From Emiliania huxleyi CCMP1516 (Eukaryota), in assembly GCF_000372725.1 (NCBI RefSeq), contig NW_005202427.1, positions 1,214,459 to 1,278,458 on the forward strand: 64,000 bases of DNA. Reading direction: 5' to 3'. Made by a program: the position numbers and the translations under genes. This document shows, piece after piece, positions 1 through 49,990 of this stretch. The notes beneath the pieces were generated by a model. It saw only the letters and a program-made list of their open reading frames with translations, had not been told where the DNA came from and did no database searches. How positions within the stretch are numbered: the stretch's first letter is position 1; each line of letters starts with the position of its first letter.

Positions 1-2736
1 GCGCTACTTCGGCTCCTTCGTGCAGCGTGTGCTCGACGAGCCGCTGGACGTTCGGCTGCACTACGGCCACCCCGCCCTGCTCGACAAGCTGCACTTCTTC
101 TGGGAACCGTCTTGGAACCTTCTTGGCACATTCTAGGCCACCCCGACCTGCTCGACAAGCTGCACTTCGCCACGCGCGGCGGGGTGAGCAAGGCGTCCAA
201 GGAGATCAACTTGAGCGAGGACATCTTTAGCGGGTACAAGACGGTGCTCGCCGGCGGCTGCGTCGTCTTTCGCGAGTACCACCTCGTGGGCAAGGGGCGG
301 CCCACAAACCTGATGGAGATCACCGGCTTCTTCGCGAAGCTCTCCTCCGGCTCCGCCGCGTCGCTCACGACGCGCGACGTGGCGCGCTTCGCCGCCAGCG
401 CGCCGCTCGTGAAGCTCTTCTCGTACTACTACTCGGCCATCGCCTTTTACGTGCACGACGTGATCGTGATGCACGTGACGGTGCCTCGCCCCGCGCCTGT
501 CCCTCGCCCCGTGCCCGCGCGCGCGAGGGATGGATGGCGAGCACCGCACTCCTCATTGCGGATGGCCGAGCAGGTCCTCATCCCCTACCTGCTCGCGATG
601 CTCGCGCTCGTCGGCCTCGATCACCGCTTCAACAACTACGAGGCGCAGCCCCTCTCGCTCTTCGCCCTGCTCCCGCTGCTGCTCTCGCTCATGACGGCCC
701 TCCCGCTCTTGCGTGTCTGTAACGACTGCCCATCCTCTTCATCACGTGCTTCCCCGTCGTAGGCCGTGCCCGCGCTCTGCATGGTGCTGGTTGAGAGAGG
801 GCCTCGCCGGGCCCTCTCCTTCTTGCTTGGGATGGCCATCACCGCCTCGCCCGTCTACTTCATCTTTGTCGCGCAGACAAAGTCCTTCCACTTTGCGCGC
901 ACCGTCACGGCGGGCGGCAGTTCATTAGCAGCTAATTCGTAGCTTATTTAGTAGCTGATTCGTAGCTTCGTAGTAGCTTATTAGTAGCTTATCAATCACC
1001 ACAGGCGGGCGGCGCGTCCTACTTCGCCGCGCGGCGGAACGCCTCAGTGCTTCACACGCCCTACCACGAGCTGCACGCGCGCTTTGCGCACTCGCACCTC
1101 TACGTCGCCGCCGACGTGTACGTCTTTCTCTGCATGGCGCACGTCTGGTCCGTCTCGGACCGGCTCTTCCTCACGACGTGGCCCACTTGGGCGGTGGCTT
1201 CGTGCTTCGTCCTCGCGCCGCTGCTGTACAACCCGCAGCAGCTCGAGGCGTGGCAGGTCAAGGCGGACGTGCGCGGCTTCTGCGGCTGGGTGACGGGCGG
1301 AGGCTGGGAGGAGTGGTACGCGCGGCTGCACGGGCCGCCCGCGCGCGGGGGCATGGCCGCCGAGGACGCGGCGTGGAACGAGCAGTTCGGACGCGTCTCT
1401 GTCGCGGCGTTTTACTCGTTCATCGCCTACCTCATCCCGCTCCAGACCAATGTCGACAACTTCGCCGCCACGCGGGGGTGGGTGTGCGAGCCGCGCCTCG
1501 TCTGCACGGGCGCAACCTACCTCGCCTCGCTCGTCGCCCTCGCCGCCGCCGACTTGCGCCCCCACCGCTCGGCGCGCGCGCCGTCGAGCCGCCGCCGCCG
1601 CGCCTGCTACGTCGCGGCCGCCACCCTCTGTGCGGCCGCCACCCTGCAGCTCGCGGCGGCGTGCGCCGTTTTGGGGCCGGCGAGCAGCGCCGCTGGAAAG
1701 GCCCTCTGCGCGCCCGACTGCCGTTTGCGGAGGCGCCTCGCTGGCCTGTAGGCCGGCCTCGCTCGCACCGCCTCGCTGCGCAAGCGGCTGTGCGTCGCCG
1801 CCCTGTGCGTCTACGCTTGCGCAGGCGCTGTCGGGTCGGTGCTGGAGACGTCCGCCAATGCGCCCTCTCTGTCTGAACCTCTTTTGAACCCTTCTCCGAG
1901 CCTTGGATAGGTGCTCGAGCTCGCTGCCAACATGCGGGCGACGGCGGACGTCGCCGCGCCGCTGCTGAGGCTCGCCCACAAGGCGCGCGAGAGCGTGGAG
2001 AGACACGCCCTCCCGCGGACACTTCCTACACACTTCATAAGACACGCCCTCCCGCGGACACTTCCTACACACTTCATAAGACACGCCCTCCCGCGGACAC
2101 TTCCTACACACTTCATAAGACACGCCCTCCCGCGGACACTTCCTACACACTTCATAAGACACGCCCTCCCGCGGACACTTCCTACACACTTCATAAGACA
2201 CGCCCTCCCGCGGACACTTCCTACACACTTCATAAGACACGCCCTCCCGCGGACACTTCCTACACACTTCATAAGACACGCCCTCCCGCGGACACTTCCT
2301 ACACACTTCATAAGACACGCCCTCCCGCGGACACTTCCTACACACTTCATAAGACACGCCCTCCCGCGGACACTTCCTACACACTTCATAAGACACGCCC
2401 TCCCGCGGCTGCTCCGCCTCGCCCAGCAAGGCCACCTATGTATATTTATATACCTGGCGCCTCAGGCGCGTGATTATGCCCTCGCCGCCGCGGTCCTGCT
2501 GCCGGTTGGCGCCCTCGCTGCGCTGCGGCTGCCGGGCGTGGTGCACCGGGCGCTCATCTTTCAGCGCTCGTTTGTCGACCTCGACATGCGCCGGCGCAGT
2601 AGTGTTTCCTGCCCCGGGCGCCCCCGCTTGTTTACCCTCCGTGCTCACTACGGGTAGGCACGGGCTCATCCTGTACTCCTCCGTCCTCGCTGCGGTCGCC
2701 CTCGCATACGCGCTCTCCTCGCTGGATTGGGGCTGA
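1..2736 (+). CDS. 1,3-beta-glucan/callose synthase (GT48, FKS-like), 5'-partial, multi-exon
   Basis: Spliced translation RLHYGHPDLLDKLHFATRGGVSKASKEINLSEDIFSGY...EYHLVGKGR...FFAKLSSG is the GT48 catalytic signature, followed by multiple TM segments. Inferred introns include 66-136, 910-1004, 1839-1910 and 1983-2465; stop at 2734-2736. Confidence 0.9.
2001..2408 (+). repeat. 39-bp tandem repeat (~10 copies) inside a glucan synthase intron
   Basis: Unit agacacgccctcccgcggacacttcctacacacttcata repeated essentially perfectly. It lies in the inferred GC-AG intron 1983-2465. Confidence 0.95.
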
Positions 2737-7762: not shown

Positions 7763-7879
7763 TGTCGTCGATGCAGCGAGGGACGGGACAGACTGGAGAG
7801 TGTGCCGGCGGGAGCGTAGACAACCAAAAAAAAATTTTTTTGGGTAGGACCTGTAGCACCCATACCGCGTTGGTGTCCA

Positions 7880-9115: not shown

Positions 9116-11416
9116 TCATCTCGCCTGCCCTTCATCCGTAAATGAAAAGGGCAAGTCCTCCTCCTCCTCCCCACCGCCCTCCGTCGCCGGAGCGCTCGCC
9201 CCCTCCATCAGCCGGCCCAGCTCCGCCTGCCACGCCTGCATCACATGGCCTGGCAGCGCGCCAGCAAGCATGCCTGCGTGCACAGCCGCGCCCAACGCCA
9301 CCGCCTCCATCGGCGCCACCGTCCTGCGCGGGTCGATGCCAAACAAGTTGGCGACCAGCTTGCGCACCGCCGCCATCTGCGTGGCACCCCCCACCAGGAC
9401 CACCTCCGCGAGCGGCTCCCCTCGCGGGAGGTAGGTTCGCTTGCCGCTCGGCAGGAGCGCCTACGCGGCGGGGGACCATCTTGACAATCCACCTGTGTCA
9501 CAACTGCAGGTGTGAAGAGACGCTGTTCACGCCTACGCGGCGGGGACCAGGCTCCCTCACGCCCCCCGCAGCCCCAGAGGGCCCAGCCCGCTCTGCCAGG
9601 GCACGCCTCCGCCGCGCGCCTCGCCTTCGCCGTCCGCTTCTTTGCTGGCGACGACGGCGCCGCCTGCGCGAGGGTTGCCTCGGACGTGCGACCCAAACGG
9701 AGGGCTCCGGCCACCCTCGCGCAAGCCGGGAGGGCGGGGGCATGCGCGCCTCCCCTGGCAGCGACACTGCGGCAGCGAGCGCAACCTCGTAAAGAGGCGC
9801 CTTGAGCCGCTGCAGCAGCGGCTCGCACGCAGCCTCCATCGCGTCGCGGGTCAGCTCGATCGAGGTGCCTTCGCCGCCCTCGCCGCCGCCCTCACGGTCG
9901 CCCGTCGCCGGCGACTGCGGCGACGGGAAGAGGACCGAGACGCGCTTGACGACCGAGAGCTTGCGCTTCGCCGCCTAGACCCGAGTATGATTGATGAATA
10001 TGTCATGTTTTTGGTGGTATTGTCACAGCTTGCGGCTTGGCCGCCTCGGCGCGCTCGCGCAGAGTGCGCAGCGCGGCCTCGTCGTGGTCGATGGCGGGGA
10101 GGGCGAGCCTCCGCCCCTGGGCCGCGAGGGGGGGGGGGGAGGGGGGGTTAGAGGGAGACGGAAGGCGGCGAGGGGGAGGACTGCGGCTGGGCCCGCGCTG
10201 CTCTGTCGTGCGCTGCTCTGTCGTGCGGAGCCGGCGGGAGAGTGCTCCCCGGCCCCGGTCCTCCTAGTGGTGGAAGAGAGGTCCTCGCCCCCGCAGGCCC
10301 CGCCCCGCCCCCGCAGGCCCCGCCCCGCCCCCGCAGGCCCCGGCAGCACCTCCGCGAGGAGGAGCGCGACGATGGCGGCGTCGAAGTCTGTCCCGCCGAG
10401 GAGCGGGTCCCCCGAGGTGGCGAGCACCTCGGGTTAGGGTTAGGGACAGGGTGAGGGGGAGGGGGAGGGACAGGGTGGGGGTTAGGCCGAGGAGCGGGTC
10501 CCCCGAGGTGGCGAGCACCTCGGGCGAGGCCGCCGAAGCGAGGCCAGGGGCGTGCTGTCAGGCGTGTGCAGCGGCCAGAGCGGCGGCGGTGCGGCGCGGA
10601 TGGGCGGCGGTGAGGCCCGGCCCAGGGCGTGTGGCGCACCTCGACGGCCTAGAAGGCTCCTAGAAGGCTCCTAGAAGGCTCCAGGGCGTGTGGCGCACCT
10701 CGACGGCGCCCTCGTCGCCGAGCCGCAGCACAGACACGTCGTAGGTTCCGGCGCCTAGAGGGCTCCTAGAAGGCTCCTAGAAGGCTCCGGCGCACAGACG
10801 CGTCGTAGGTTCCGGCGCCGAGGTCGAGGACGAGCACCTTGCCGACCGCCCCGCCGAGGCCGTAGGCGAGCGATGCGGCGACCGGCTCCGCGAGCAGCGA
10901 GACCGAGCCGAGCCCGGCGAGCCGGGCCGCTGCGAGCGTCGCCTGCCTCTGAGGCGCGTCGAAGTAGGCGGGCACGGTCACGACTGCGCGGCAGATCTCG
11001 CTCGCCGGGACGTCGAGCGCCCCGAGCAGCTCGGCCAGCACGCACGCGCCGGCCTCCTCCGGACTCAGATCGCCCACCGCAGGAAGCCGAAACATGGCGG
11101 CGCCCTCCTCGTCGCCGACCACCGTATACTGCGCACGTGCAATCTCGGCCTTGCACTGGCGCACGGTCCGCCCAATGAAGCGCTTGGCCGCCACCACCGT
11201 GTTGCGCACGTTCTGGCTGGCCTGAAGGTCGGCGGCCGCGCCCACCAGCACGGTGCCGTCGCCGGTGAAGGCGACGGTGGAAGGTGTCAGCGGCTCGCCG
11301 CGCGCGTTCGGGAGCAGCGACGGCTCGCCGCCTCGCAACAGCGCTATGGCCGAGTTGGTGGTGCCAAGGTCGATGCCGACGAGCAGGCCAGTGGCGAGGC
11401 AGGACGCGAGCAACAT
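9116..11416 (-). CDS. Hsp70-family protein, nucleotide-binding domain only, multi-exon
   Basis: GIDLGTTNS, TVPAYF, LAEPVAASLAYG, DLGAGTYDVSVL, ATSGDPLLGGTDFD, VLVGGATQM, EAVALGAAVHA; stop follows shortly after. Confidence 0.9.
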
Positions 11417-15631: not shown

Positions 15632-16262
15632 TGTGAAGAATTCTTAAAATAGAACACTGGCACGACAAGGGCGCGGACTGGCAAACACACATTGCTAAAA
15701 ATCTCTCTCTCTCGGACTGGCGCGGACTGGCACTCACACACATCTCTCTCTCTCTCTCACACAGCCGGCACGCTACTCGAGTAAGAATTTTACAACAAAA
15801 CTCCCTCAGTGGTGTACCTGTGTTAGTGCAGTGCGCGCCAGTCCCGTGATTGATTGATGGGAAAGCGAAACACAGTCCGACCAACGACTGGGACACAGTC
15901 CCTTGCCCAGTGTTGTGCGAGTAAGAATTCTTAAGATACAAGCCTCTCTCACAGCACACTGGCACGACAAGGGCGCGGACTGGCGCGGACTGGCACACAC
16001 ACAGGCTCACCACCGGAGCCGCCTAAGCGACTCCGTTAAGAACGGCAATGCACTCCGCACCATGCACAATGCCGCTCTCCCCGCACGCTAGCTCGTTCAC
16101 CGTCTGCCACGCCACGGCGGTGTGGAGGACGACAGACAAGCGCTGCATCTGCAGCCCGTGCCAGTTCTTGGTGGTCCATGTGACCTCGTCCAGGTGCTGA
16201 GCGTGCGAAAGTTTGTTGCTCAGCTGGTTCGCCGCCTCCCTCAGGGTGCTGCGAACCTCCTT
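15632..16262 (-). mobile_element. stack of 5'-truncated non-LTR retrotransposon 'family A' 3' ends
   Basis: 15924-16262 is the reverse complement of ~19517-19855 with no difference I could see, flanked by tgcgagta (15916-15923, 16263-16270). Further 3'-UTR fragments (gccagtccgcgcc..., ending taagaattctt/taaaattctt) lie at 15632-15920. Confidence 0.8.
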
Positions 16263-19039: not shown

Positions 19040-19855
19040 CTACTCAAACGTTTGATCAAATGCCTCCGCTCGGCGTGGGGCATGATCATCGAGATGGAGC
19101 CGACTGCACACCTCAGTTACAGTAATCCAAAACAACCTGACGTGGCGGCGGCAAACATCGGCAGGGGGCACAGGCGCCTTGTTGCCGATTTGAAGCTCAC
19201 GAGCTCGCTTGCGAGCCAGGGCAAGGACACGGCCGGCGACGGAGAGCTCGGCTGGAAGGGGGCCTATGTGCGTTTTGGCAACACGGAGACCGGGCTGCTC
19301 AAGTTGGTCAAAGGGCGCGGCAAGTGGTCTCCGTCGGGAGCGACGGCAGCGGCGGTGGCGGGGGAGGAGGAGGAGGCCGAGGAGGAGGGGGAGGAGGGGG
19401 AGGAGGAGGATGCCCCCAAGGGAAAGCTCAAGGAGCTGCCTGGCGATTACCCCTTTGCGCGGCAGCAGGATTGCGATCTACGTTTGTTTGATTTTGAGGC
19501 TTTCGGAGGCTTTGGAAAGGAGGTTCGCAGCACCCTGAGGGAGGCGGCGAACCAGCTGAGCAACAAACTTTCGCACGCTCAGCACCTGGACGAGGTCACA
19601 TGGACCACCAAGAACTGGCACGGGCTGCAGATGCAGCGCTTGTCTGTCGTCCTCCACACCGCCGTGGCGTGGCAGACGGTGAACGAGCTAGCGTGCGGGG
19701 AGAGCGGCATTGTGCATGGTGCGGAGTGCATTGCCGTTCTTAACGGAGTCGCTTAGGCGGCTCCGGTGGTGAGCCTGTGTGTGTGCCAGTCCGCGCCAGT
19801 CCGCGCCCTTGTCGTGCCAGTGTGCTGTGAGAGAGGCTTGTATCTTAAGAATTCT
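19040..19855 (+). mobile_element. 5'-truncated non-LTR retrotransposon 'family A' (CRE-like restriction-like endonuclease C-terminus + 3' UTR)
   Basis: ORF tail EMEP...KQPDV...VADLK...GDY...FEAFGGFGKEV...W...QRLSVVLH (stop 19756) has the PD-(D/E)xK layout of REL-type retroelements. No RT region is present. Other copies lie in the window. Confidence 0.7.
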
Positions 19856-19873
19856 AAATCTCTTTTTCTCGCG

Positions 19874-21298
19874 ATGTCCACCCCACCGCGCCGCCGCTCG
19901 CGCCGCCTCGCCCCCGCCGCCGCCGCCGCTCCCTCGCCAGACACGCCGCCGCCCGCCCGCCTCCTCGACCTCCCCACGGAGCTCCTCGTGCGCGCCATCT
20001 CTCGCTGCGACCCCGCCGACATCGCTCGCACCGCGGCCGTCTCGCTCCTCTTCCACGCCTCGCTTGCGGTGGAGGGCATCCGCTTGCGGGCGCAAGAGCG
20101 CGGCTACGAGCTTCCGGCGCCGCCAGAGGGCGAGGGCTGCGCCGTGCGGTGGCTGTTCTTCGCTGCGCTGCTGTGCGAGTCCAACCCGCCGGCGAGGGCG
20201 GCGGCAGGCGAACTCCACAGCGTTTTCATCGACGGCGAGGGGCGGCTCTCGTCGTGCGGCTCTGCGCCGGACTGGTATCCCGGACTGCTCGGTCACGGCG
20301 AGGGCGTGACGCGGCTGAACACGCCGACCCGCCTCCCGTCGATGCTGGGTGGCGAGCGCGCCGTGAGCGTGGCGGCAGGAGATTACCACAGCCTGGCCCT
20401 CACCAGCAGCAGTGTCTGGAGCTGGGGCTATGGTCTCTACGGCCGGCTGGGCCACGGCGACGAGGAGGAGCAGTGGCAGCCAAAGAAAGTCGAGGCCTTG
20501 ACTGGCCAGCGCGTCGTCGCCGTGTCGGCTGGAGGCGCGCACAGCCTTGCAATAACTGCCGACGGAGCTGTCCGGAGCTGGGGCCATGGAGGCAAAGGCC
20601 GGTTGGGCCACGGCGACGAGCAGAGCCAGCTGGAGCCCAAGAAGGTCGAGGCCTTTGCTGGCCAGCGCGTCGTCGCTGTGTCGGCTGGAAGCTTCCACAG
20701 CCTCGCCATCACCGCCGACGGCGCCGTTTGGAGCTGGGGCAGTGGAGACTGGGGCAAGCTGGGCCACGGCGACGAGCAGAACCGGCTCCTGCCGAAGAAG
20801 GTCAAGGCCTGGGCTGGCCAGCGCGTCGTCACTGTGTCGGCTGGAAGCTTCCACAGCCTCGCCATCACCGCCGACGGCAGCCTCTGGAGCTGGGGCCATG
20901 GACTCTCTGGCCAGCTGGGCCACGGCGACGAGCAGCAGCAGCTGCTGCCCAAGAAGATCGAGGCATTTGCTGGCCAGCGCGTCGTCGCTGTGTCGGCTGG
21001 AGGCCACCACAACCTCGCCATCACCGCCGATGGCGCCGTCTGGAGCTGGGGCTATGAAGGATGGGGCATGTTGGGCCACGGCGACGAGCAGCGCCAGCTG
21101 CTGCCGAAGAAGATCGAGGCCTTTGCCGGTCAGCGCGTTAACGCCGTGTCGGCTGGGCTGTACCACAGCTTCGCCATCACCGCCGACGGCGCTGTCTTTA
21201 CCTGGGGCATGGGCGTTCACGCCTGCCTTGCCCACGGAGAGGACCTGTCGAACCAGCTGCTGCCGAAGAAGGTGGAGGCGTGGGCGCCGGGGCAGTGA
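19874..21298 (+). CDS. F-box-like + RCC1 repeat protein, intronless
   Basis: LLDLPTELLVRAI (F-box-like) followed by ~6-7 RCC1 repeats (VSAGxxHSLAITADGAVWSWGxGxxGxLGHGD). Confidence 0.92.
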   Translation: MSTPPRRRSRRLAPAAAAAPSPDTPPPARLLDLPTELLVRAISRCDPADIARTAAVSLLFHASLAVEGIRLRAQERGYELPAPPEGEGCAVRWLFFAALLCESNPPARAAAGELHSVFIDGEGRLSSCGSAPDWYPGLLGHGEGVTRLNTPTRLPSMLGGERAVSVAAGDYHSLALTSSSVWSWGYGLYGRLGHGDEEEQWQPKKVEALTGQRVVAVSAGGAHSLAITADGAVRSWGHGGKGRLGHGDEQSQLEPKKVEAFAGQRVVAVSAGSFHSLAITADGAVWSWGSGDWGKLGHGDEQNRLLPKKVKAWAGQRVVTVSAGSFHSLAITADGSLWSWGHGLSGQLGHGDEQQQLLPKKIEAFAGQRVVAVSAGGHHNLAITADGAVWSWGYEGWGMLGHGDEQRQLLPKKIEAFAGQRVNAVSAGLYHSFAITADGAVFTWGMGVHACLAHGEDLSNQLLPKKVEAWAPGQ

Positions 21299-21464: not shown

Positions 21465-21680
21465 AGAAAGAAAACGGACAGGACCCCAGGGAGGGATATG
21501 GGAGGACGGCACGCCGCCACCACACAGGGATTTTAAGGAGAGGGGAGCACAGAAAGAAAGAAAGAAAACGGACAAGCCAAGGGAGGGATGGGAGGACGGC
21601 ACGCCGCCACCACACAGGGATTTTAAGGAGAGGGGTGTGGTGCGCTAGCCGTCGCCCACCCTTGGGCGTCCGCCTCTTCC
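21465..21680 (-). mobile_element. two tandem 'family B' retroposon 3' ends
   Basis: Two copies of (gaaa)n...gggagggatgggaggacggcacgccgccaccacacagggattttaaggagagg. Confidence 0.8.
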
Positions 21681-22877: not shown

Positions 22878-25800
22878 CTACTCCCGCTCCCACTCGTCCT
22901 TGTTCTCGGCCCCCCACGAGAAGCGCATCATCTTCATCTCCTCCTCGAGCTCGGTGGCCCAGTCGCCTTTGCCCGTCGCGCGCGCGTGGTTGAAGTTGCG
23001 GTGCATGTCGACGATCTTGCGCGCCTCCGGCGACAAGTCCATGTACCGCCCCTGGTACGGCTCGTCGTCGCAGACCTGCGGCGCAGCGCACGAGTGGCGG
23101 CGCAGCGCAGTAGTGGCCCCTGGCGCGAGCCTCGTCTGTGCATCTCGCGCGGGCGGGGAGGGCGGCGCGCGCCTGCTTGATGGCGAGGGCGGGCGAGAGC
23201 TTCTCCTCGGACGGGAAGAGCCGCGAGAAGACCGGGCCGCCTGAGGAAGGTTCCGAGAAGGTTCCGAGAGGGTTCCGAGCAGGTTCCCGAAGGTTCCGAG
23301 AAGAGCGGGCCGCCCGTCTCCTTGGGCAGCATCACGTGCACCTCGCCCGGCTCGTATGTCCACGTCGCCTGCCACACAAGCCGAGCCCCGGTGACGCTCT
23401 CCTGGCGCGGGCGGGCGAGGTGCGGGGCTGTGTCCACGCGCCTCGCCAGCCACCACAGGCTTGTCGAGCGAGCCTGAGAGGGGGGGGGAGGGAGGTCGAA
23501 GGCCTGCGCCGTGAGCCGACGCGAGGGAGGGCGGCGCGGCGAGGGAGGGCGGTGCGGTGGCGAGGCGAGCAAGCCTGCGAGGAGGACGTGTCCAATAGAC
23601 TACTCAATAGACTTCTCACTAGCAAGCCTGCGAGGAGGACGTGTCCGCGCGCCACCATCCGCAGCAGCAGCGGCTTGATCTCGACGCGGATGTCTCTCCG
23701 CGCCATGTCGGGCGGGATGCGCACGAGCAAGTTGATCTCCTGCGGGGCAAGGTCGGAGGGGTGAGGGGTGGCGGCGCGGGGTCGGCGAGCGGCTGCGGCG
23801 GCTTCCTCGTCCGTCTGCGACCACGAGTAGGTCGTGTTTGCCTCGAGCGGAACCTCCGCCTTGCGCAGAGGGAGCAGAGGGAGCAGGGGGAAGGGGGGGG
23901 GGGGGGGGGGAGCAAGTCGGCTGTGGGGCGGGGTGGCCTTGCGCCCGTGCCCCGACCCTCTCGGGCCCGCTAGTCCCACGGCTCGCGCTTCTCTGCTGCT
24001 CGAGCGCAACCTTGATCAGCGCTCCGCCGCCGCCGCCGCGAGAGGGAGGCTTTGCGGCCGGCTCCGCCCGCCGCTGCAGCATGTCTCTCCGCTGCAGCAT
24101 GCCGTTGCCAGGCGCTCCGCCCGGCGAGGGCTGCGGAGGCGGCTTGCGCGTGATCGGCGCCGCCTGGGTCGCACCCGCGGCGGGAGTGGCGCGGGGGTCG
24201 GGGCGAGGCGCGTGCGGAGGCGGGGCGGCAGGACGACGGCTCGCTGCCTCTGGGCTTTGGGGGGGCGAGAGAGGGGGGAGGGGAGAGGTGTGTGAGGGGG
24301 GAGAGCGTGCGATGCCTTTGGGCTGACGAGGGCCAGCTCGTGGTGCGGGAAGGGTTAGGGTTAGGGTTAGGGTCAGGGTTAGTGCCTTTGGGCTGACGAG
24401 GACCAGCTCGTGGTGCGGGAAGGGTTAGGGTTAGGGTTAGGGTCAGGGTCAGGGTTAGTGCCTTTGGGCTGACGAGGACCAACTCGTGGTGCGGGAAGGG
24501 TGAGGGTTAGGGTTAGGGTTAGGGTCAGGGTTAGTGCCTTTGGGCTGACGAGGACCAGCTCGTGGTGCGGGAAGGGTTAGGGTTAGGGTTAGGGTCAGGG
24601 TCAGGGTTAGTGCCTTTGGGCTGACGAGGACCAGCTCGTGGTGCGGGAAGGGTTAGGGTTAGGGTTAGGGTCAGGGTCAGGGTTAGTGCCTTTGGGCTGA
24701 CGAGGACCAGCTCGTGGTGCGGGAAGGGTTAGGGTTAGGGTCAGGGTTAGGGTCAGGGTCAGGGTTAGTGCCTTTGGGCTGACGAGGACCAGCTCGTGGT
24801 GCGGGAAGGGTTAGGGTTAGGGTTAGGGTCAGGGTCAGGGTTAGTGCCTTTGGGCTGACGAGGACCAGCTCGTGGTGCGGGAAGGGTTAGGGTTAGGGTT
24901 AGGGTCAGGGTCAGGGTTAGTGCCTTTGGGCTGACGAGGACCAGCTCGTGGTGCGGGAAGGGTTAGGGTTAGGGTCAGGGTCAGGGTCAGGGTTAGTGCC
25001 TTTGGGCTGACGAGGACCAGCTCGTGGTGCGGGAAGGGTTAGGGATAGGGTTAGGGTCAGGGTCAGGGTTAGTGCCTTTGGGCTGACGAGGACCAGCTCG
25101 TGGTGCGGGAAGGGTTAGGGATAGGGTTAGGGTTAGGGTCAGGGTTAGTGCCTTTGGGCTGACGAGGACCAGCTCGTGGTGCGGGAAGGGTTAGGGTTAG
25201 GGTTAGGGTCAGGGTCAGGGTTAGTGCCTTTGGGCTGACGAGGACCAGCTCGTGGTGCGGGAAGGGTTAGGGTTAGGGTTAGGGTCAGGGTCAGGGTTAG
25301 TGCCTTTGGGCTGACGAGGACCAGCTCGTGGTGCGGGAAAGTGCGCCGGTGCTCCGGGCCGTAGTAGCCTACGAGAGACAGCCGCAAGCTCACACGGCGC
25401 CCCTCCCTCGCAAGCGGCGAGCCCCGTGGCGGTATGCGGCGCCGCCGCGGTGGCAACGCACGCACAAGTCGAAGGCGCTGTCGCCGACGCCGCAGTCGAC
25501 GCAGTGGTAGAAGCGGCGGACCTGTTAATATTAATATTAATGTTAATATTAATATTAATCGACGCAGTGGTAGAAGCGGCGGACCTGTTAATATTAATAT
25601 TAATATTAATGTTAATATTAATATTAGTCGACGCAGTGGTAGAAGCGGCGGACCTGTTAATATTAATATTAATATTAATGTTAATATTAATATTAATCGA
25701 CGCAGTGGTAGAAGCGGCGGACCTGTTAATATTAATATTAATATTAATGTTAATATTAATATTAATCGACGCAGTGGTAGAAGCGGCGGACCTGTTCGCG

Positions 25801-27167
25801 GCACGGCGCGTGAAGAGGCGCTGCTCACGGCCGTGGGAGGGGCCGCAGCCGAGGAGGCACAGTGGAGGCGCAGCCGTCGCAGCTGGCTTGGGAGCCCGGC
25901 AGAGGGTACTCTCGCTCCTCGCCTGATCAGGTCAAGAGTGGAGTGCTGATGAAGCAGGCACGGCACTCGGTCTCCTCTCGCCAGCGGCTCGGTGAGGCCG
26001 AGGAGACGGGCTTGGCGGTGGGGCGGTGGTGGGGTGGAGCAGCGGTCGGGAGTGGAGTGGCGGTCGGGAGTGGAGTGGCGAGCGGGTTGGGTTAGGGATA
26101 GGGTTCGGGTTAGTGGAGTGGCGAGCGGGTTGGGTTAGGGATAGGGTTAGGGTGAGTGGAGTGGCGAGCGGGTTGGGTGGCGGGGCGAGGCTGCGCCTGG
26201 GTCAGAGCCCTACTAACCCCTCCTAACCCTAACCCTAACCCTAGAGGCTGGCCTGGGTCAGAGCCTCCGTCGCTGGAGGAGCTCGACGATGCGTCCGAGG
26301 CAACGCGCCTACAGGGCGGTTCCAACAAGGTTCCAAGAAGGTTCCAAGAAGGTTCCAGGAAGATGCGTCCGAGGCAACGCGCCCCTTGTACGCGGGCACG
26401 GGCTTCCGCCTCCGCCTCCGAGGCCCCTCCGAGCCCTCCGCCCGGGCGCCGTCCACACGCGGCCCCGCCGCTGCTGCCGCTGCTGCTGTTGCTGTTGCTG
26501 CTGCTGCCGGCGGTTGCTCCTCCTTCGTGGGTCGCGGGGTGAGCCGCACGGCTGGTCGCCAGGAGCTGCGTGCCGGCACGGCCACGCCGTTCGAGAAGCC
26601 GTCGCCATTCTCCCCTCCCACCGCCGCTCGCCCCGATAGGCGGCTCTCTGCGAGGCGGCTCTCTGCGAGGCGGCTCTCTGCAGGTGCGACTCGAGCGACT
26701 CGCGTGCCGCCGTCCACCGCCTGCCGTCGCCAAGCCTGCCGTGCGCGCGCCGCCGAAAAGGCACCGCGCCCAGCCGAGGAGTCCGGCACCGCATCAGCCT
26801 GCGCACCATCGTGCTCGGGCAGTGCACAGACAGGAGCATTCTCGCCCGCGAGAGACTCCTGCAGGTGCTGCCTACGGCCGTCGCCGCAAAAGAGAGAGCT
26901 CCAGCCAGCGACCTTCTCCTTGAAGAGGACGAGTCGCAGCTCCGTGGATTCCGCGCCGCTCTCCGGTACGTACAGCGTGTAGGCGCGTGTGCGGCGCGGC
27001 ACGACGGGCGCAAACAGCCGGCGGCGAAGCAGGACGCCCGAGCCTGCGAGCTCGAGTGTCAGGCGGCGGCGGGAGAGGACGACCTTGAGCTGGCTGTGGG
27101 CGGTGCCGGTTGGCACGACGATGCCGCACGTTGCAGTCGCGTTGTCCTGCCTCCACGTGTACGCCAT
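22878..27167 (-). CDS. CS-domain / ZZ zinc finger / CS-domain (NudC-like co-chaperone) protein, many exons
   Basis: MAYTWRQD...LRLVLFKEKVAGWSSLF (CS); SCDGCAST|VRRFYHCVDCG...FDLCVRCH (ZZ); YSWSQTDE|EINLLVRIPPDMARRDIRVEIK...TWTYEPGEVHVMLPKE (CS). Joining these into one gene is inferred from the splice pattern. Confidence 0.7.
24312..25340. repeat. 14-copy array of a ~40-bp exon end separated by TTAGGG/TCAGGG hexamers (period 70-82, mostly 76 bp)
   Basis: tgcctttgggctgacgaggaccagctcgtggtgcgggaa counted 14 times. Linkers are 5-7 telomere-type hexamers. Confidence 0.97.
25496..25796. repeat. 5-copy array of a ~30-bp acceptor/exon start separated by (ATTAAT)n
   Basis: cgacgcagtggtagaagcggcggacctgtt at ~25498, 25561, 25630, 25699 and 25768; period 63-69 bp. 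Confidence 0.97.
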
Positions 27168-27252: not shown

Positions 27253-28036
27253 GGAGAGAGATAGGAAGAGGCAGACTACCTAGGGTGGGCGACGGATAGC
27301 GCACCACACACCTCTCCTTAAAATCCCTGTGTGGTGGCGGCGTGCCGTCCTCCCATCCCTCCCTTGGGTTGTCTGTTTTCTTTCTTTCTTTTTGGGCATC
27401 ATCCGTAGAGGCACGAGTGTTCGAAGAGAGAGTGGACCTGAGCAACAACATGACCTGTAGGCAAATGATCGGAGTGGGAGTCAGAAATGTGGTCCTTGCG
27501 CGAGGGGAGCTCGATAGACTCGAGGGGCCAGGATACGCCGCGAGGAGGACGGAGTTGCGCCGAAAGGCGAAAGAAGCCGCGAGAACAAGGGACCGGCAGG
27601 CGGCGGCGTCGCAGGACGAGGCAGAAGAGAACAACGCGACAGAGGAGGAAGTGACATCAAGGGAGAGAACGACGAGGGTGGGACGACCGCGAGGTGGCAT
27701 GAAGGTTGCAGCGAGAATCGGCGAGAGACTGCGAAGAGAGATAGGAAGAGGCAGGACTCCCTAGGGTGGGCGACGGATAGCGCACCACACACCTCTCCTT
27801 AAAATCCCTGTGTGGTGGCGGCGTGCCGTCCTCCCATCCCTCCCTTGGGTTGTCTGTTTTCTTTCTTTCTTTTTTGGAATATCATTTCGTGTGCGTCGCC
27901 CATCTCTCCCTGGAGATGACTGCTCTATTTATTTATTTATGGAATATCATCGCACAAAATGGTGGCGGCGTGCCGTCCTCCCCCATCCCTTACTTGGGTT
28001 GTGCGTGTCCCTTTCTTTCTTTTTCCCTCCTTTGGT
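27253..28036 (+). mobile_element. tandem 'family B' retroposon copies; the second retains the ORF C-terminus
   Basis: 27253-27392 and ~27733-27875 are near-identical and end in (tttc)n. The second is preceded by an open frame ending ...ERLRREIGRGRTP* (27764). A degenerate third copy lies at 27960-28036. Confidence 0.75.
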
Positions 28037-28257
28037 GTGTCTGTTTTCTTTCTTTTAGAAATTCCCTCCCTCGCACATCACTGGAAACGTGAATAGAGAT
28101 CCGCGAAACCGCCGCACCCCCCAGCGGAGGGGGCTCGAGGTGTCGAGGCCAGGGCTCAGGCACAAGAACGAAAAAAATCGAAATCGGCAACGCTTCAAAT
28201 CGGCAACGCTTCAAATCGGCAACGCCAATCGATCTGTCAGGTCCGCCGGTCGTCCAC

Positions 28258-34963: not shown

Positions 34964-34995
<32 letters not shown>

Positions 34996-38549: not shown

Positions 38550-40287
38550 GGTCCGGTTGTCGCACTCGAGCGCGTGGACGGGGCCGATGCGCGCGGCCTA
38601 ATTAAATCGTAATTAATGAGAGAGTATTTAATTAAGGACGGGGCCGGGGCGCGCGGCCTCAGCGTGGATCTCCTCGACCGCCTTCGAGCGGTCCGCCTCG
38701 CCGGAGGAGCCCGCGCCTAGAAGGTTCCTAGAAGGTTCCTGGAGCTTCCTAGAAGGTTCCTCGCCTCGCCGGAGGAGCCCGCGCCCTCCGTCTCCATCGG
38801 CGTTGGCTCGGCCGGCTTGGCGGCGAGCGCCGCGGCGCCGGCTAGGGTGTGCTCTCCAGTGTCGGCCGGCGCGGCGGCGGCGGCGGCCTTGTCGGCGGCA
38901 ACCTTGTCGGCGGAAGCCTTGTCCGCTGCAGCCTTGTCGCGCGCCTCTTCGAGCCTGTTGTTGTGCGACGCGATGTTTGCCTGCAGCTCTTTTGTGCACA
39001 GGTTCCGCACGTCGAGCACGTCGGGGAAGGAGATCGGGCGGAGGATCTTCGCGCGCTTCTCGGTATCCTTGCGGTACTGGAAGCGCACAAAGTTGACGGC
39101 GAGGTAGGGCGGGAGGCGGGCGATCTGCTCCGTCTTGTCGAAGAGCGCCTCGCGGCCGAGCGCGGCCGAGTGCTTCTCGATCGACTCGGAGAGGGACGCC
39201 TCGACCGCCGTGTAGAGGTGCGCCTGCCCGCGGCAGAGGGTGGTGAGGGAGGAGGCGCTTCGCAGCCGCGGCCCGGCGGCAGGCGCGCCGTCTTCTCGTT
39301 GATGTGGCACTTGAGGACCGTGTCCTTCTCGCGCTTCTCGTACGGCTCCTCGCCACCCGCCTCGGCGCACGCGTACCTCGTCACCTTCTCGACGCCTACG
39401 GGACGCGTCGCGGACATGTCACGCGCGCCCCCAGACACGTCGACCGCTGCCACCTCTCGTCGCCAAAGAGCGCGTCGCCGAGGTTGTCGCGCAGCTCCTG
39501 CTGGTGCGGCAGCAGCGGCGGCGAGGCGTTGTCGAGGTCGGACGGCGCGCCGCCTAGAAGGTTCCTAGAAGGCTCCTAGAAGGCTCCTAGAATGTCCCTG
39601 GAGGTCGGACGGCCCGGCGCCGTCGGGCAGCTTGAGCCGCTGCGCGAGCACATTCGTGACGAGCGTGGACCAGCACTCCTGCGCGTCCTGCTGCACAAAG
39701 CCGCGCCCGCCCTCGGCCTGCTGGGCGAACATCGGGAAGTTCTGCCGAAAGACCGACACGAACTTGAACGGGCGCACCTCCTGCGTCGCGTTGGACCGCT
39801 CGAGCTCGCCGACCAGCTCACGCATCGCAAACAGCAGCGCCTTCTCAGACTCGCCGCCGGTGCCGGCGTACTTTTGCAGCGCGAGCGATACCTCGGGGAT
39901 GCGGATCATCACCTGCAGCGACGAGTTGAGGTAGCAAGTGTTGCCGAGGTTCGTCAGCCCGCCCGGGTTCTTGGACGCGGTGAGCGCGGCGACGTCGACC
40001 GCGGGCATGTCCTCCACGAAGATCGTCTTCTCGGCGGGCGCCTCGGGCACCGCCTCGGCCGAACCCATGAGCATCAGCACCTGGCCCTGCTTGACGCCCA
40101 GCGCCTCCCAGTCCGCGCCGTCCTTGACGGTGCCTCCCTTGACGCCCATGATCTTTTGCCGCTCGACCGGCACGTTGGTGAGCGCGAATAGCTGCGCCTT
40201 GAAGAGGTCGACTGGCGCCGACTTGTCCAGCTCGACGGCCTCGAACTTCTTCTTGCCCCACTTGACGGTGACGTTGATTGTGGACAT
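38550..40287 (-). CDS. USP14: ubiquitin carboxyl-terminal hydrolase 14/Ubp6 (UBL + peptidase C19), 3' end not visible
   Basis: VTVKWGKKKF...FKAQLFALTNVPVERQKIM...MLMGS (UBL); GLTNLGNTCYLNS (Cys box); QQDAQECW; RLPPYLAVNFVRF...KAKILRPISFP.LDV. His box not found before the N gap. Confidence 0.92.
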
Positions 40288-40358: not shown

Positions 40359-40460
40359 TGTAGCGCACCACACTCCTCTCCTTGAAATCCCTGTGTGGTG
40401 GCGGCGTGCCGTCCTCCCATCCCTCCCTTGGGTTGTGTGTTTTCTTTCTTTCTTTCTTTT
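40359..40460 (+). mobile_element. 'family B' 3' end just upstream of USP14
   Basis: tagcgcaccacac..ctctccttgaaatccctgtgtggtggcggcgtgccgtcctcccatccctcccttggg...(tttc)n. Confidence 0.8.
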
Positions 40461-40890
40461 GCGGTTGCTGACTGCACTCCAAGTGCTCCAAGCAAACTCC
40501 CTCGCACAACACTGGGCACGGGACTGGCGCGCACTGGCACTAACACAGGTACACCACGGGAGCCGCCTAAGCGACTCCTGCGAGGGTGGCGAGGCACTTA
40601 GCTCCGTGCACCCGCCCACCCCCGCCACAGGCAAGCTCATTCACGACCTGCTCTGCGATGGCCGTGTGAAGAACGACTGAGATACGCTGCTTCTGCAGCC
40701 CCAGCCAGCTCTTGGTGGTCCAAGTCACCTCATCGAGGTACTGGGCCCGCGTCAGCTTGTTCTGTAGCACGTCCGCCGCCCTCCGGAGGATCTCACGGAC
40801 CCCCTTTCCGAACCCGCCGAACGATTCGAACAGCAGCAGCTGCACCTCGACGCCCTTGTCTTCCCTGGCGTAGCGATAATCCCCGGATTC
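40461..40890 (-). mobile_element. family A sister-subfamily retrotransposon 3' end
   Basis: GDYRYARE...LFESFGGFGKGVREILRRAA..LQNKLTRAQYLDEVTWTTKSWLGLQKQRISVVLHTA aligns with the ORF at 19440-19756; the 3' UTR is related. Confidence 0.8.
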
Positions 40891-41322
40891 ACTCCTATGC
40901 ACCTTCGGTGAGGGTACATTGGCGCGTAAAAGGAGAGTCACGGAATCGCGCGCGCCTCCACCAGGAAGGGCTACGCAGTATCCCTGACATCCCAACGCGC
41001 AGTGGAGGAGGAGCGAGGGCAGGTGGCCCGGAAAGCCCAATGAACCCCACAGAAGGGGCAACTGGCCGTGGCATGGAGCCACAGAGGCGACAGCCAAATC
41101 ACGAGAGGGGTGAGGCCGGTCGCCGAGCGTCCAGAGGCCGCCGGGAATCGAGCCACCACCGTCAAGGCGGCAAGGGAGAAAGCACCACCCAACACCGCCG
41201 TGAAGGACGCAGAGGCAGAAGAAGAGGTAGGAGAGGAGAGGATCTCCGTGAGTCTCCTGCGGGAAACTAGTGGCCTATCACGAGTTAGGGCCCCTACCCC
41301 AATCGTTATTGGCGAAGACGTT
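40884..41322. mobile_element. dispersed repeat 'C', with segments recurring inverted at 57430-57455, 58214-58311 and 58752-58852
   Basis: Near-exact reverse-complement matches of ~100-bp blocks. Confidence 0.65.
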
Positions 41323-41406: not shown

Positions 41407-44400
41407 ATGACTGCGGCCCTGTTCGCTCTCCTCCTCCTTCCAGCGCTCAACGACGACGCTGACCCTCGCACCCTCGTCCGCTGGGCCTCGTCGCGCTGCG
41501 AGCCGGCCGTAAGCGGCTCGTGCGGCCGCGAGCCGCACGGCTACTGCGACGCGTCGGTCGGCCGGTGCGTCTGCTCGCCCGGCCGCTTCGGTCCGCGGTG
41601 CGAGCAGATGCACTACCCGGCCTGCCGGCTGCACCCCGACGGCGAGATGGCGTGCGACACCTTTGTCGGCCTCATGTCCTGCGCGTGCCGCCTCTCGTGC
41701 GAGCAGAGGTACGGCTCGATGGCGCGGTTCAACACGCCTCTCTGCTGGGACGAGTCCGTGTCGGACGAGGAGCTCAGCCGCCGGTCGCTGCAAGCCGACG
41801 GCGGCCGCTCTCCAGCGACCCTCCGCACCCACACACTCCCCACCCTCCCCGACGCAAGCGGCCGCGCCTCGCTATCCCAGGCGCCCTCACCGCCCTCTCG
41901 CTGGTCAACACGTCCGACTTCCCGGCGGCGAGCGCGAGCATCGTCTTCCGCACCGACCAGTGGCCGCTGCGCGGCCGCTGCGCGCGGAAGAACATCGCGC
42001 CTGCCAAGCTCGCCGCCTGCACCTCGCGCACGGCCGTTGGCCACAACAAGGCGACGAGGCAGCGAGGAGAGGGGGGGGCGCCTCCGCTCTCCCCGCGGAC
42101 GCCGCCCGTCGCCGCGCCTCAGGCGAGGAACATGCTCGGCGGCGACCCCGTCCCCAACTGGCGCTGCCCCGGCTCCTGCTCCCACCGCGGCACGTGCCTC
42201 GTCCCCGCCGCCTAGACACTTCTGGGGCCTTCTAGGAACCGTCCAGGAACCTTCTAGGCACGTGCCTCGTCCCCGCCGCCTAGACACTTCTGGGGCCTTC
42301 TAGGAACCGTCCAGGAACCTTCTAGGCACGTGCCTCGTCCCCGCCGCCTAGACACTTCTGGGGCCTTCTAGGAACCGTCTAGGAACCTTCTAGGCACGTG
42401 CCTCGTCCCCGCCGCCGTCCGCTCGGAGCACGCGCGGGAGCAGTACCCGCTGCAGGGCGAGCGCGCCGGCGAGGCCCTGCCCCCGCCTCCGTGTGCGCGT
42501 GGGCGTGTGCCCTCACGCCTGCCGCACCGAGCAGGCGAGATTACCCGAGATTACCCGAGATTGCCCTCACGCCTGCCGCACCGAGCAGGCGAGCCGAGCT
42601 GCGTCTGCCACCGCGGGTATGTCGGCCGCGCCTGCGAGGCTGTCAGCCCGTCCGAGGAGCGCGTGCGCCTCGCGGCAACGCCGCCTGCCGACGCCGCGTC
42701 CGTGACGCGACCGTGAGTCGTGTCCACAGGAGCCGTTCGGCGCGTCGAAGTACGGCTCGCTCTGCCTCAACGGCCGAGGCTGCTCCGGCCACGGCGCGTG
42801 CGTCGCCCGCTTCTGCCTCTGCCACGCCGGTTGGGCGGGCGCAGACTGCTCGCTCCCAAACGCTCCGAGCCGGCCGCTGGCGCCGCCCGCCGCCCTGCCG
42901 AGCGCGCAGCCGATTGGCGGGCGGCGCGTGCCCATCTACATCTACCCGCTGCCGACCGAGATGTCGCTCGAGCACGTCTACATGCGCGACATGCTGCGGC
43001 GAGGCCAGTACTACGCCAACCTCATGTTCCTCGAGGTGACGCGTCCTCCTGCCCAACCTCCTGCCCAACTCGCCATCGCATGTCNNNNNNNNNNNNNNNN
43101 NNNNNNNNNNNNNNNNNNNNNNNNNNNNNNNNNNNNNNNNNNNNNNNNNNNNNNNNNNNNNNNNNNNNNNNNNNNNNNNNNNNNCCCCCAGTCCCTCCCC
43201 CAGTCCCTCCGCCAGCCCCTCCGCCAGTCCCTCCGCCGCGGAGCGGGCGGTGCCGCGCCCACACCCAACCGCCCGCCCCGCAGGCGCTGCTCCGCGACAA
43301 GGCCTCCGTCGTGGCAGACCCGGAGCAGGCGCGAGGCCGGCCTCGGCCCAGCGCCCGCCCGCTGCTCGCCCAGGCCGGCAGCTGCCTCGCCCGCAGGCGG
43401 CCCTCTTCTTCGTGCCGGTGATGCCGATGCAGATGGCGGGCAACTTGTGGCACCCATACGAGTTCCTCGCGCAGACCGCGCGCCACCTCGCGAGCGAGTA
43501 TCCCTTCTGGCGCCGCTCCGGCGGGCGAGCGACCAGCCCTTCCTCGCACGCCGAGTGAGGAGGGGATCAACAACTCACGGCATGTCAATCCATTGGTAGT
43601 CGCGACCACATCTTCTTCCTCACGACGGACCGCGCCGGCTGCTGGAAGCCATTCGAGCTCAACCAGTCCATTGTGCTCACCTACCTCGGCTTCTCTGCGC
43701 CGGAGGCCAACTCTGGCTGCGAGGAGCGGCTGGCTAACCCTCGCCCCGACCCTGGCCCTGACCCTGACCCCTAGGCCAACTTTGGCTTCGAGGAGCGGCT
43801 GCGCTGGGGCGCAAACCCGTCGGGGCCGGAGCGGCGCAACAACGCGTACGACACGCGCGAGGGGTCGGTCGCCACCACGCTGCCCTGCTACGTGCCTGGC
43901 CAGGACATCGTCGCTAGCCCCACCCCTGAGCCATAGCCCATACCCAAAACCCTAACCCGAACCCTAACCCTGACCCTGACCCTGACCCTGACCCTGACCC
44001 TGACCCTGACCCTGACCCTGACCCTGACCCTGCTACTTGCCTGGCCAGGACGTCGTCGTGCCCGTCGACACCGAGGTGAAGGCCGCCGACCAGGCAAAGT
44101 CGCCGCGGCCGGGCGCTCCGTACCAGTGCGCGGGCCGGGCGGGCAAGCTGAAGCTGCTGCACATGGGCGGCTCGATGCAGAACATGGGGCGGATCGAGTA
44201 CTCGCAGGGCGTGCGGCAGCGCATCGCCGAGCTGCACAGCGACGAGCCAGACTTCGTGCTCGGCGGCACCTTCACGCTGGACGACCTGCGCGCCGCCACC
44301 TTTTGCCTCGCGCCGTCGGGCTGGGGCTGGGGCTGGCGCATCACGCTCACCCTGCTGACGCAGTGTGTGCCCGTCATCATCCAGCCGAACGTGACGCAGC

Positions 44401-47262: not shown

Positions 47263-47552
47263 GAGGGAGCCTTGGGCATGCTGGCGTTGCGTCTCGTGAT
47301 GTGCGCGCGGGTGGAATGGCTGCCGCTGGGACCACCGACCGCGGTTCCTGGTCTTCGTTTTAGATGGCCCCTCCGTGTGAGCATCTTCCACCCTGCGCAA
47401 AACCAAAGGTGTAGAGGAAAGGGGAGAAGAGGTAGGCGCAGATAAAAAGAAATTGCCCCGCCACGTGCTAGTGTGCGGGCGAGGTGTGCAGCTGCATTTG
47501 CGCGCGCCCGACCCGCAGCAGCTGGAGGCCCTCACCGCGAGTGCTTGTCGCG

Positions 47553-49990
47553 ATGGCCGACGCCGAGGCCGACAAGCGCGCAGAGGCCGAGATTGAAATC
47601 TGGAAGGTCAAGAAGCTCGTCAAGAACCTCGAGGCGGCACGCGGGTGCGCAGCGCCGACGCCCTGCCGCGATAGCCTGGGCGGGATGCACTGCGCCGCGT
47701 GGCGAGGAGGAGACCGGGCGGCCACGGATCAGCTCCGCCCTCACCGGGCCTCGCTCGCAGGAACGGCACGTCGATGATCTCGCTGATTCTGCCGCCGGGC
47801 AGCCAGATCTCTCAGGCGTCCAAGATGCTTGCCGAGGAGTACGGCACGGCGTCCAACATCAAGTCGCGCGTGAATCGCCTCTCCGTCCTCTCGGCCATCA
47901 CCTCGACCCAGCAGCGGCTCAAGCTCTTCTCCAAGGTTCCTCCGAACGGTCTCGTCATCTACTGCGGCACGATCCTGACCGACGAAAACAAGGAGCGGAA
48001 GGTCAACATCGACTTCGAGCCCTTCAAGCCGATCAACACGTCCCTGTACCTGTGCGACAACAAGTTCCACACCGAGGCGCTGCAGGAGCTCCTCATGTCG
48101 GACGACAAGTTCGGGTTCATCATCATGGACGGTCCGGCCCCGACACCGCTCCCTCCGCCTGACACACGGCCTCACACACAACCTCACACACCACCGCCGC
48201 AACGCCGCCCCGCGACGGCGCCGCCCCGCCCGCCGCCCTTGACCGCTCCTCGTCCGGTGCCCGAGCGGGCGGACGCCGCCGCCAGCCCACCCCCTCGCCC
48301 CTCTGCCGGCAGGTAACGGCTGCTTGTACGGCACTCTGGCGGGCAACCACCGAGAGGTGATCCACAAGTTCTCGGTCGACCTGCCGAAGAAGCACGGCCG
48401 CGGCGGCCAGTCGGCGCTGCGCTTCGCGCGGCTGCGGCTCGAGAAGCGTCAAAACTACGTGACCAAGTGCGCCGAGATGGCGACGCAGATGTTCATCACC
48501 AACGACAAGTGCAACGTGTCTGGGCTGGTGCTGGCCGGCTCGGCAGACTTCAAGGTGGTGCTCTCCGAGTCGGACAAGTTCGACCAGCGGCTCGCGGCAA
48601 AGGCAGCCCGCGCCCTCCCCACCCTCCCCACCCTCCCCTACCTCCCCACCCTCCCCGCCCTCACCACCACTCCCAANNNNNNNNNNNNNNNNNNNNNNNN
48701 NNNNNNNNNNNNNNNNNNNNNNNNNNNNNNNNNNNNNNNNNNNNNNNNNNNNNNNNNNNNNNNNNNNNNNNNNNNNCGCCTCCCCCGGCCCGCGCCACCT
48801 GTCGGCCCGCCTCCCTCTGCCGCCTCCCTCTACCGCCTCCCTCTGCCGCCTCCCTCTGCCGCCTCCCTCTGCCGCCTACCTCTGCCGCCTCCCTCTGCCG
48901 CCTCCCTCTGCCGCCTCCCTCTGCCGCCTCCCTCTGCCGCCTACCTCTGCCGCCTCCCTCTGCCGCCTCCCTCTGCCGCGAAGGTGCTCAAGACGGTGGA
49001 CGTGTCGTACGGCGGAGAGAACGGCTTCAACCAGGCGCGAGCTGGGCAGTCGCGAGGTAGTCGAGGGGTGAGGAGGCACTCCCTACAGAGAGGGCACAGG
49101 CGGGTTGAGTTCCCAGCCGTGCGCAGATAGCCGTGCAGACGGGGGGCGGCGCGGTCGCGGCATGCTGCCGCGGTGAGGCGTTCCTTCGTTTGTGCGGGCA
49201 GGCGATTGAGCTGTCGGCCGAGACGCTGGGCAACGTCAAGTTCGTGCAGGAGAAGAAGCTCATCTCGCAGTACTTTGAGCAGATCTCGCAGGACACGGGC
49301 AAGTTTTGCTTTGGGATCGACGACACGCTCAAGGGGCTCGAGATGGGCGCCGTGCAGATCCTCATCGTGTGGGAGAACCTTCAGGAAGGCCAGGAACCTT
49401 CTAGGAACCTTCTAGGCGCCGTGCAGATCCTCATCGTGTGGGAGAACCTGGCGACCTTGCGGTACACGCTCAAGGACGCAAACAGTGGCGCGCGGCGGCC
49501 TCGCGCCCCTCCCCCCGCAAGCCGCGCGCCCGTCACCCCGCCGCCGCCGCTCGCGTGCAGGGGAGGAGGAGGTGAGGCACATGTCGCCCGAGCAGGAGGC
49601 CGACAAGTCCAACTTCGTCTCCAAGGCACCGCCCGCTCGGTGCCCTCCCGCCCGCCACACCTCGCTCTGACGGGCCGCCTAGCATTCGCCGCGCAGGAGG
49701 GCGCCGACCTCGAGGTGGTCGACAAGGTGCAGCTGGTCGAGTGGTTCGCGTCCAACTACAAAAACTTTGGCGCGACGCTCGAGTTTGTGACAAACCGCTC
49801 GCAAGAGGGCGCGCCGCCCGCCGCCGCCCTGCGCCGCCCCTCTCCAGCGCGGGGGGCGCGGCCTGACGCAGCCCTCTCCCGCCCCGCGACAGGCTCGCAG
49901 TTTGTCAAGGGGTTTGGCGGGGTGGGAGGCATCCTCCGGTACAAGGTCGATTTCATGGAGCACGACTACGACAACGACGACTCGGACTAG
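47553..49990 (+). CDS. ETF1: eukaryotic peptide chain release factor 1 (eRF1), 9 exons, gap in an intron
   Basis: [82 protein letters not shown]. Confidence 0.98.
48808..48978 (+). repeat. 13-bp tandem repeat (CGCCTCCCTCTGC)n in eRF1 intron
   Basis: ~13 copies directly before the acceptor at ~48983. Confidence 0.9.

Follow-up and report, generated by a model that had tools for sequence, protein, structure and literature searches.

Eleven-nucleotide repeat tracts paired with exon duplications form intron-shaped units in genes of Emiliania huxleyi

The DNA analyzed here, referred to below as the window, is a stretch of 64,000 nucleotides (nt) from Emiliania huxleyi CCMP1516 (contig NW_005202427.1, positions 1,214,459 to 1,278,458 of the forward strand). 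Among its genes are those for a 1,3-beta-glucan synthase, Hsp70, a USP14-like protein, a protein with EGF and exostosin GT47 domains, and eRF1. It also contains nine tracts built from variants of a single 11-mer, all of them lying where a sequence-only reading of this DNA had placed them. With at most one mismatch allowed the 11-mer has 25 matches in the window against 1.22 expected, a number which none of 100 shuffles reached, and all 25 fall inside the nine tracts. A fuzzy scan (22 nt, at most 4 mismatches, any phase, both strands) recovers the nine sites and nothing else, while two Markov controls returned no match; the earlier statement that none of the tracts is intergenic thus holds within the window.

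What that reading missed is the main feature of these sites. At nine of nine, a 17–34-nt copy of the start of the next exon, here termed X, stands 5' of the tract, giving the layout X-tract-AG|X. The unit formed by X and tract is 59–74 nt long; X begins with GC, mostly after a G, and the tract ends in YAG. Excision from the start of the first X through the AG leaves a single X and restores the original reading frame. Tract and paired exon duplication together make up a whole new intron, the donor of which comes from the duplication.

The glucan synthase gene carries a 71-nt intron-shaped unit at 66..136 (+), composed of a 32-nt X (66-97, with a G|GC donor) and an 11-mer tract ending TAG; the second copy of X follows at 137-168 (+), and restoration of the frame suggests that the unit is spliced. 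Hsp70 has two units on the minus strand, one of 64 nt (10755..10818), which is also present in metagenome locus L009, and one of 59 nt (10649..10707), each consisting of a 27-nt duplication and a GGAGCC-type tract. The 73-nt unit at 23241..23313 (−), assigned to its strand by a codon model only, combines a 17-nt duplication with a degenerate tract ending CAG. At 26309..26382 (−) a 21-nt exact duplication and a variant tract ending TAG form a 74-nt unit in a probable CS-domain gene, for which a homology search gave nothing at E 1e-10. The USP14-like gene contains two GC-AG introns of this build on the minus strand: one of 68 nt (38717..38784) with a 23-nt exact duplication and a tract, absent at these bounds from proteins P0134 and P0221, and one of 67 nt (39554..39620) with a tract and a 20-nt diverged duplication. 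Three head-to-tail 68-nt units of duplication and tract occupy 42190..42393 (+) in the EGF/exostosin GT47 gene, and eRF1 has a 69-nt GC-AG intron at 49347..49415 (+), with a 34-nt exact duplication and a tract, which is in frame and free of stop codons.

Three of the nine sites were compared with transcript-derived proteins, named MMETSP transcripts among them, and at all three the unit is removed at its exact bounds (49347-49415, 39620-39554 and 38784-38717). The YAG of the tract is the acceptor used in these proteins, which bears out the suggestion that the repeat brings a ready-made acceptor with it. Because the two copies of X are not identical at 39620-39554, the protein shows which of them is translated: it is the downstream copy, so that the donor must lie where the upstream copy begins. 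For the USP14-like protein the match named Emiliania huxleyi CCMP1516 is 98% identical, and the eRF1 cluster holds proteins of the same name. Being removed at GY...AG bounds, the units at the three protein-checked sites qualify as U2-type GC/GT-AG spliceosomal introns; the remaining six, at which splicing is deduced from layout and reading frame, are presumably of the same kind. Twelve introns were mapped in the eRF1 and USP14-like genes, one eRF1 intron across a gap and the last USP14 intron being left aside; five have a duplication in the window and a sixth has one in a wild allele. Since three window loci, tracts included, recur in independent metagenome contigs, an assembly artefact is unlikely.

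A marine metagenome scan for two exact units yielded at least 125 loci. The matches listed contain 156 tracts, of which 113 distinct ones remained once 28 repeats and 15 tracts at contig edges had been set aside; counts on these loci, here and below, are among the matches listed. A flanking duplication (score at least 12) lies beside 103 of the 113 tracts, as compared with 7 of 558 flank-swapped controls, that is, the direct repeat expected of break repair is present well above background. The 103 include about three repeated or allelic entries and four sites that belong to the window itself. In 73 of the 103 the motif strand offers an exact donor-acceptor register where X begins (GC 52, GT 19, GA 2). 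In 66 clean cases the unit measures 59–86 nt (quartiles 66, 68 and 71), with X at 19–35 nt (10th to 90th percentile) and the filler, the segment between the two copies of X, at 34–52 nt. The two lengths are inversely related (rho −0.81), so that the total stays near 68 nt whatever the split: its standard deviation is 4.6, against 9.5 after X and filler lengths are permuted, and none of 10,000 permutations reached the observed value. Thirty of the 66 duplications are free of mismatches. The lengths of X appear to resemble those of nucleosome linkers, a possible lead.

At the 5' junction the end of X matches the phase of the repeat by 1.9 nt, versus 0.30 for the other phases (40 of 66 cases in register), and there is thus in-register microhomology at the primer end, as in telomerase-type addition. 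Where tracts depart from the consensus they match the continuation of the local exon in 86 of 353 cases (24%), the control value being 25%. Because the deviations follow the local exon no more than chance, local slippage was rejected, as the sequence-only reading had argued, and a template in trans is needed. The same comparison led us to reject an origin in which some 68 nt of exon are simply duplicated in tandem and slippage, or ectopic conversion with other introns, subsequently replaces the 3' half. Intron gain by tandem duplication is itself established (PMC3443670), and the arrays of whole units show that local duplication is active. Mismatch-free duplications, however, already possess full tracts, and an A occurs at −2 in just 26 of 70 sites, so that most plain duplicates would come without an acceptor. 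This origin strikes us as very improbable.

As to what the template might be, the earlier suggestion was a common one: a telomerase-like RNA with some 1.5 units, or else the tail repeats of a non-LTR (long terminal repeat) element, reverse-transcribed at breaks. The in-register microhomology does resemble that of interstitial telomeric insertions as described in part of PMC2246262, 131 in-register units are identical to the consensus, and the window itself contains units of this layout with telomere-like fillers. The 11-mer is, however, one family within a general process. Units of the same layout, mostly 58–80 nt, are built with telomere-like repeats, other 10- and 11-mers, AT-rich sequence, a non-tandem 37-mer or unique fillers; at least seven filler families, one of them the complex 37-mer, have the X-filler-X layout in addition to the unique fillers (the search for them gave 109 uncurated rows, 44 with periodic spacers). 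Variants moreover cluster, both within a tract and within a gene. Inspection of the 113 tracts, on contigs with two exact units, revealed no element body common to the DNA 5' of them; viral contigs held no exact match to the 24-nt double unit or the 37-mer filler core, and Rfam had 0 matches in the window. The call for a template in trans survives, the single telomerase-like RNA is not supported, and a dedicated template of either sort seems unlikely to us.

The tracts were also said to be always in sense orientation. Within the window Pfam fixes the host gene on the motif strand at seven of nine sites, namely in the glucan synthase (+), Hsp70 (−, two sites), UCH/USP14-like (−, two sites) and eRF1 (+) genes and, through EGF and exostosin GT47 domains on the plus strand, around 42213. 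For the other two the evidence is weaker: at 23241 the codon model alone supports the motif strand (18.5 vs 3.0), and at 26309 a weak CS-domain match lies about 500 nt upstream on the minus strand (E 0.0014, below the cut-off), with the codon model slightly preferring the opposite strand (−2.2 vs −7.8). When one best-scoring frame per strand was examined for each of the 103 metagenome tracts, Pfam matches fell 30 times on the motif strand (one, GlgS, is probably spurious) and once on the opposite strand (L111). The codon model, correct on 67 of 67 held-out tiles, favors the motif strand at 84 of 103, and a fuzzy census counts 7 tracts opposite to the main tract of their locus versus 144 in the same orientation, main tracts included. 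The bias is therefore strong, not absolute: the claim stands for the window and fails beyond it. The Pfam-backed opposite-strand tract of L111 still gives a GC...AG unit in exact register, since the motif, when reversed, likewise finishes with pyrimidines followed by TAG; L029, L048 and L059 look similar. A sense/antisense classifier with free end gaps called clear sense cases antisense, and its class counts (95/31/14) were discarded, its codon scores and variant counts being all that entered the analysis.

One explanation of this bias is seeding driven by RNA, in which an intron, once excised, would use its free 3' end either to join a G|GY site in a transcript or R-loop or to prime on it. 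By partial reverse splicing or target-primed reverse transcription some 40 nt would be copied, and closure at a second site downstream would duplicate X; reverse splicing into R-loop DNA has been proposed in the accessible part of PMC10996645. Such a process explains without selection the 30:1 strand bias, the lack of window copies outside genes and the AG end. It also fits the recurrence of terminal variants (a 15-nt variant at 10 of 121 tract ends; one counted form six times terminal and never internal) and the fidelity of the tracts, which is highest at their 3' end, mismatch by unit being 9, 11, 15, 26 and 42%. It sits poorly with the existence of opposite-strand tracts (L111, backed by Pfam, and L029, L048, L059 and L077), with the several tracts that end away from the AG, with another filler family, a 10-mer, which is unstranded (8 same, 10 opposite), and with fillers of 34–52 nt, which may extend past the branch point. 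Some tracts which do not act as acceptor and end in other phases (L048, L059, L077) agree instead with the repair reading set out below, on which the ends would be determined by microhomology and the TAG phase would be picked out by splicing. We consider RNA-driven seeding a doubtful, though not a negligible, explanation.

Some of the units are polymorphic. Locus L077 carries a 63-nt duplication-plus-tract, its tract on the opposite strand and over an existing acceptor, which is cleanly absent from L079; a second difference between the two loci is not a clean empty site. L079 keeps a third tract with its 38-nt duplication, which argues against collapse during assembly. In eRF1, seven of seven open reading frames (ORFs) which read through four neighboring introns are without the 69-nt unit (all in one protein cluster); most simply these are genomic empty alleles, and strains of this kind could mimic splicing at the site. 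The filled eRF1 ORF, with the unit, had no exact counterpart in the protein collection. Protein P0223, which lacks the 38717 unit and keeps both neighboring introns, was not counted as an empty allele since P0222, P0224 and P0225 show partly spliced transcripts.

The source of the filler is occasionally visible. In L104 a young and an older site 277 nt apart, the older upstream, have an unusual 3' end in common, and a rare unit is present in all three tracts. At the older site the unusual end matches the start of the adjacent exon, which suggests copying from intron to intron. Same-gene tract pairs have rare 9-mers in common in 5 of 27 cases versus 0.6 expected (p 0.0006).

Starting from the layout, exact splicing, junction microhomology, polymorphism, recurrent terminal variants and same-gene sharing of rare variants described above, we lean somewhat toward the reading that the tracts are the acceptor halves of young introns, which arose when staggered breaks were repaired by copying the 3' ends of existing introns and were then selected for splicing. 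Two nicks, probably 17–40 nt apart, would produce a staggered DNA break in a gene and cause the duplication. About 35–50 nt would then be copied from the 3' end of an existing intron, primed by microhomology, presumably in a manner like that of polymerase theta or of synthesis-dependent strand annealing; the donors may be existing members of the family, sometimes a neighbor in the same gene. Closure would duplicate X and make the donor half a 17–40-nt duplicate of the following exon, and the survivors are likely those units that could be spliced out cleanly. The scarcity of copies outside genes leads us to suppose some link to transcription. If the two copies of X recombined, this could give both whole-unit arrays, such as 42190-42393 and L095, and precise loss.

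A number of observations weigh against this. The window has no copies outside genes though only some 24–36% of its tiles look coding; insertion followed by selection predicts many neutral non-coding copies, and some targeting would be needed. In 36 of the 103 cases a formal register close to where X begins exists on the opposite strand as well, so register alone is no proof of strand. The unit-less eRF1 ORFs could stem from partly spliced RNA or collapsed assemblies, and empty alleles could be reversions. Three of the five same-gene sharing pairs come from L104, and the significant test was devised after a cruder first one, which was not significant (p 0.054 and 0.16). Nor was the older-upstream polarity significant (15 vs 9, p 0.31), and the exon starts of same-gene pairs are no more alike than random ones. 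Going beyond repair by copying, it is conceivable, and we put it forward tentatively, that introns here seed themselves in the absence of any transposon, the 3' ends of spliced-out introns being copied through RNA into breaks of transcribed exons with the donor taken from the duplicated exon, and that this made a large share of the introns and explains their GC donors.

The 2013 E. huxleyi genome paper reportedly described intron-enriched repeats of 10–11 bp with positional and strand bias, and is not known to have read them in terms of exon duplication or intron birth. The observation from which the present analysis started was thus probably already known. A full-text literature search, the reach of which did not extend to that paper and its supplements, found no description of the layout, and there was nothing on it in the parts of PMC13334186, PMC12480563, PMC8775090 and PMC6142364 that were available.

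The closest known systems each share part of the picture. New introns flanked by a direct repeat have been read as the fill-in of staggered breaks, with five events tabulated in the review PMC3443670. Break-repair gain of this kind and the present units have the flanking repeat in common, and the literature speaks of short repeats, few certain events and mitochondrial inserts as evidence; here, in contrast, a repeat of 19–35 nt makes up a third to a half of the intron on its donor side, the fillers are recurring nuclear ones, and more than 100 sites come from a small sample. Introners of Symbiodinium, in the excerpt of PMC9860276 considered, likewise take the acceptor from the insert and the donor from a target duplication, are removed exactly from the messenger RNA, and vary in presence between isolates, for which we have one clean site (L077/L079) and the seven eRF1 ORFs. 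Introners in general have 3–9 bp duplications, a fixed body and often terminal inverted repeats. Unlike these, the present units have duplications of 19–35 nt, no fold above that of shuffles in three 11-mer introns, and no fixed body or length: a filler of 34–52 nt, mostly simple repeat, is all they have in common, the 5' part of the unit is specific to each site, and the 5' end varies with the microhomology. Interstitial telomeric sequences, according to the portion of PMC2246262 cited above, are in-register tandem repeats with 1–8 nt of microhomology and sometimes a target duplication, the latter at 6 of 130 rodent and 4 of 25 primate loci as against 103 of 113 here; they are not described there as introns, and most of our fillers are not telomeric. 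Finally, in the gain of introns by tandem duplication of an AGGT segment (PMC3443670, same section) the 5' part of the intron is a copy of the adjacent exon, and both splice sites derive from the duplicated AG|GY. This suits the minority of our sites with AG|GY inside X, whereas most, 73 of 103, take their AG from the foreign filler.

The origin of spliceosomal introns is a long-standing question, for which current surveys credit transposons and drop simple-repeat families; two introner surveys removed such families deliberately, and Emiliania does not figure in the main text of either. The phenomenon described here is real: a large class of introns, gained through long target duplications and templated fillers in a process that apparently still goes on. 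In this bloom-forming alga, which is cultured and of global importance, new introns appear to be born often, to be young and to be polymorphic. As the sequence shows the target, the two junctions and in some cases the donor copy as well, the mechanism is directly testable. A majority of GC donors (56–65%) has been attributed to genome GC content in the passage of PMC4028052 examined. A donor recruited from the exon mirrors exon composition, as in the mixture of GC, GT and GA counted above, and this is a possible cause of that majority. Gene models that seek GT mis-splice such sites. The reference eRF1 model P0125 is without two residues at the 49347-49415 junction, as a GT-seeking annotation of a filled allele would give, and its sister P0124 is intact.

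Several sibling units with other fillers lie in the window. In the USP14-like gene these are a 60-nt intron at 38598..38657 (−) with the same layout and an AT-rich filler, and an older 68-nt intron at 39396..39463 (−), in which the duplication has decayed (identity at 13 of 20 nt) and the filler belongs to a different family. The exostosin gene has a unit of 69 nt (43706..43774, +), the filler of which is C-rich, telomere-like and terminated by TAG, and a 72-nt unit with a degenerate telomere-like filler is found upstream of a STELLO domain (62438..62509, +). In Hsp70 a 39-nt duplication surrounds a telomere-like filler (10395..10524, −), and there is a possible AG|GT register inside the duplicated segment. 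The sites with telomere-like fillers are 10395-10524, 24313-25339, 43704-43801, 43883-44058, 62437-62534 and 26195-26265; at five of the six the filler is C-rich on the host sense strand and would supply a branch-point-like motif. An ordinary-looking intron at 39288-39224 (−) has in the wild allele L020 14 extra 5' nt which match the next exon; deletion can thus erase the signature from old introns of this type.

The non-tandem 37-nt filler occurs at nine sites among the matches listed, all on the strand of the 11-mer (in L012, L026, L028, L032, L034, L040, L054 and L102, as intron-shaped units of 67–78 nt), and once in the window, at 9458-9545 (−). It carries short terminal direct repeats and is the most introner-like family seen. 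Two stretches of this family, and likewise three 11-mer introns (z 0.2–1.1), fold no better than shuffles. Unique, non-repetitive fillers of lower GC content, 35–52 nt in units of 65–73 nt, are present in L013, L036, L046, L048 and L078. Arrays of whole duplication and filler units are found in the window at 24313-25339 (13.5 × 76 nt), 25496-25796 (4.4 × 69 nt) and 2001-2408 (10.5 × 39 nt), as well as in L013, L034, L036, L063 and L095, the last of which has two units where L061 has one.

Elsewhere in the window, repeated ends of a mobile-element family with common flanks lie at 15670-16050, 19760-19810, 21465-21635, 27350-28055 and 40400-41300. Coding tandem repeats occupy 20414-21279 (+, 156 nt) and 54336-56561 (+, 201–213 nt), the former presumably RCC1-like and the latter AP2-like. 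On the strand opposite Hsp70 there is a Pfam NAD-GH match at 10820-11416 (+, E 3e-21), which we take to be a known antisense artefact.

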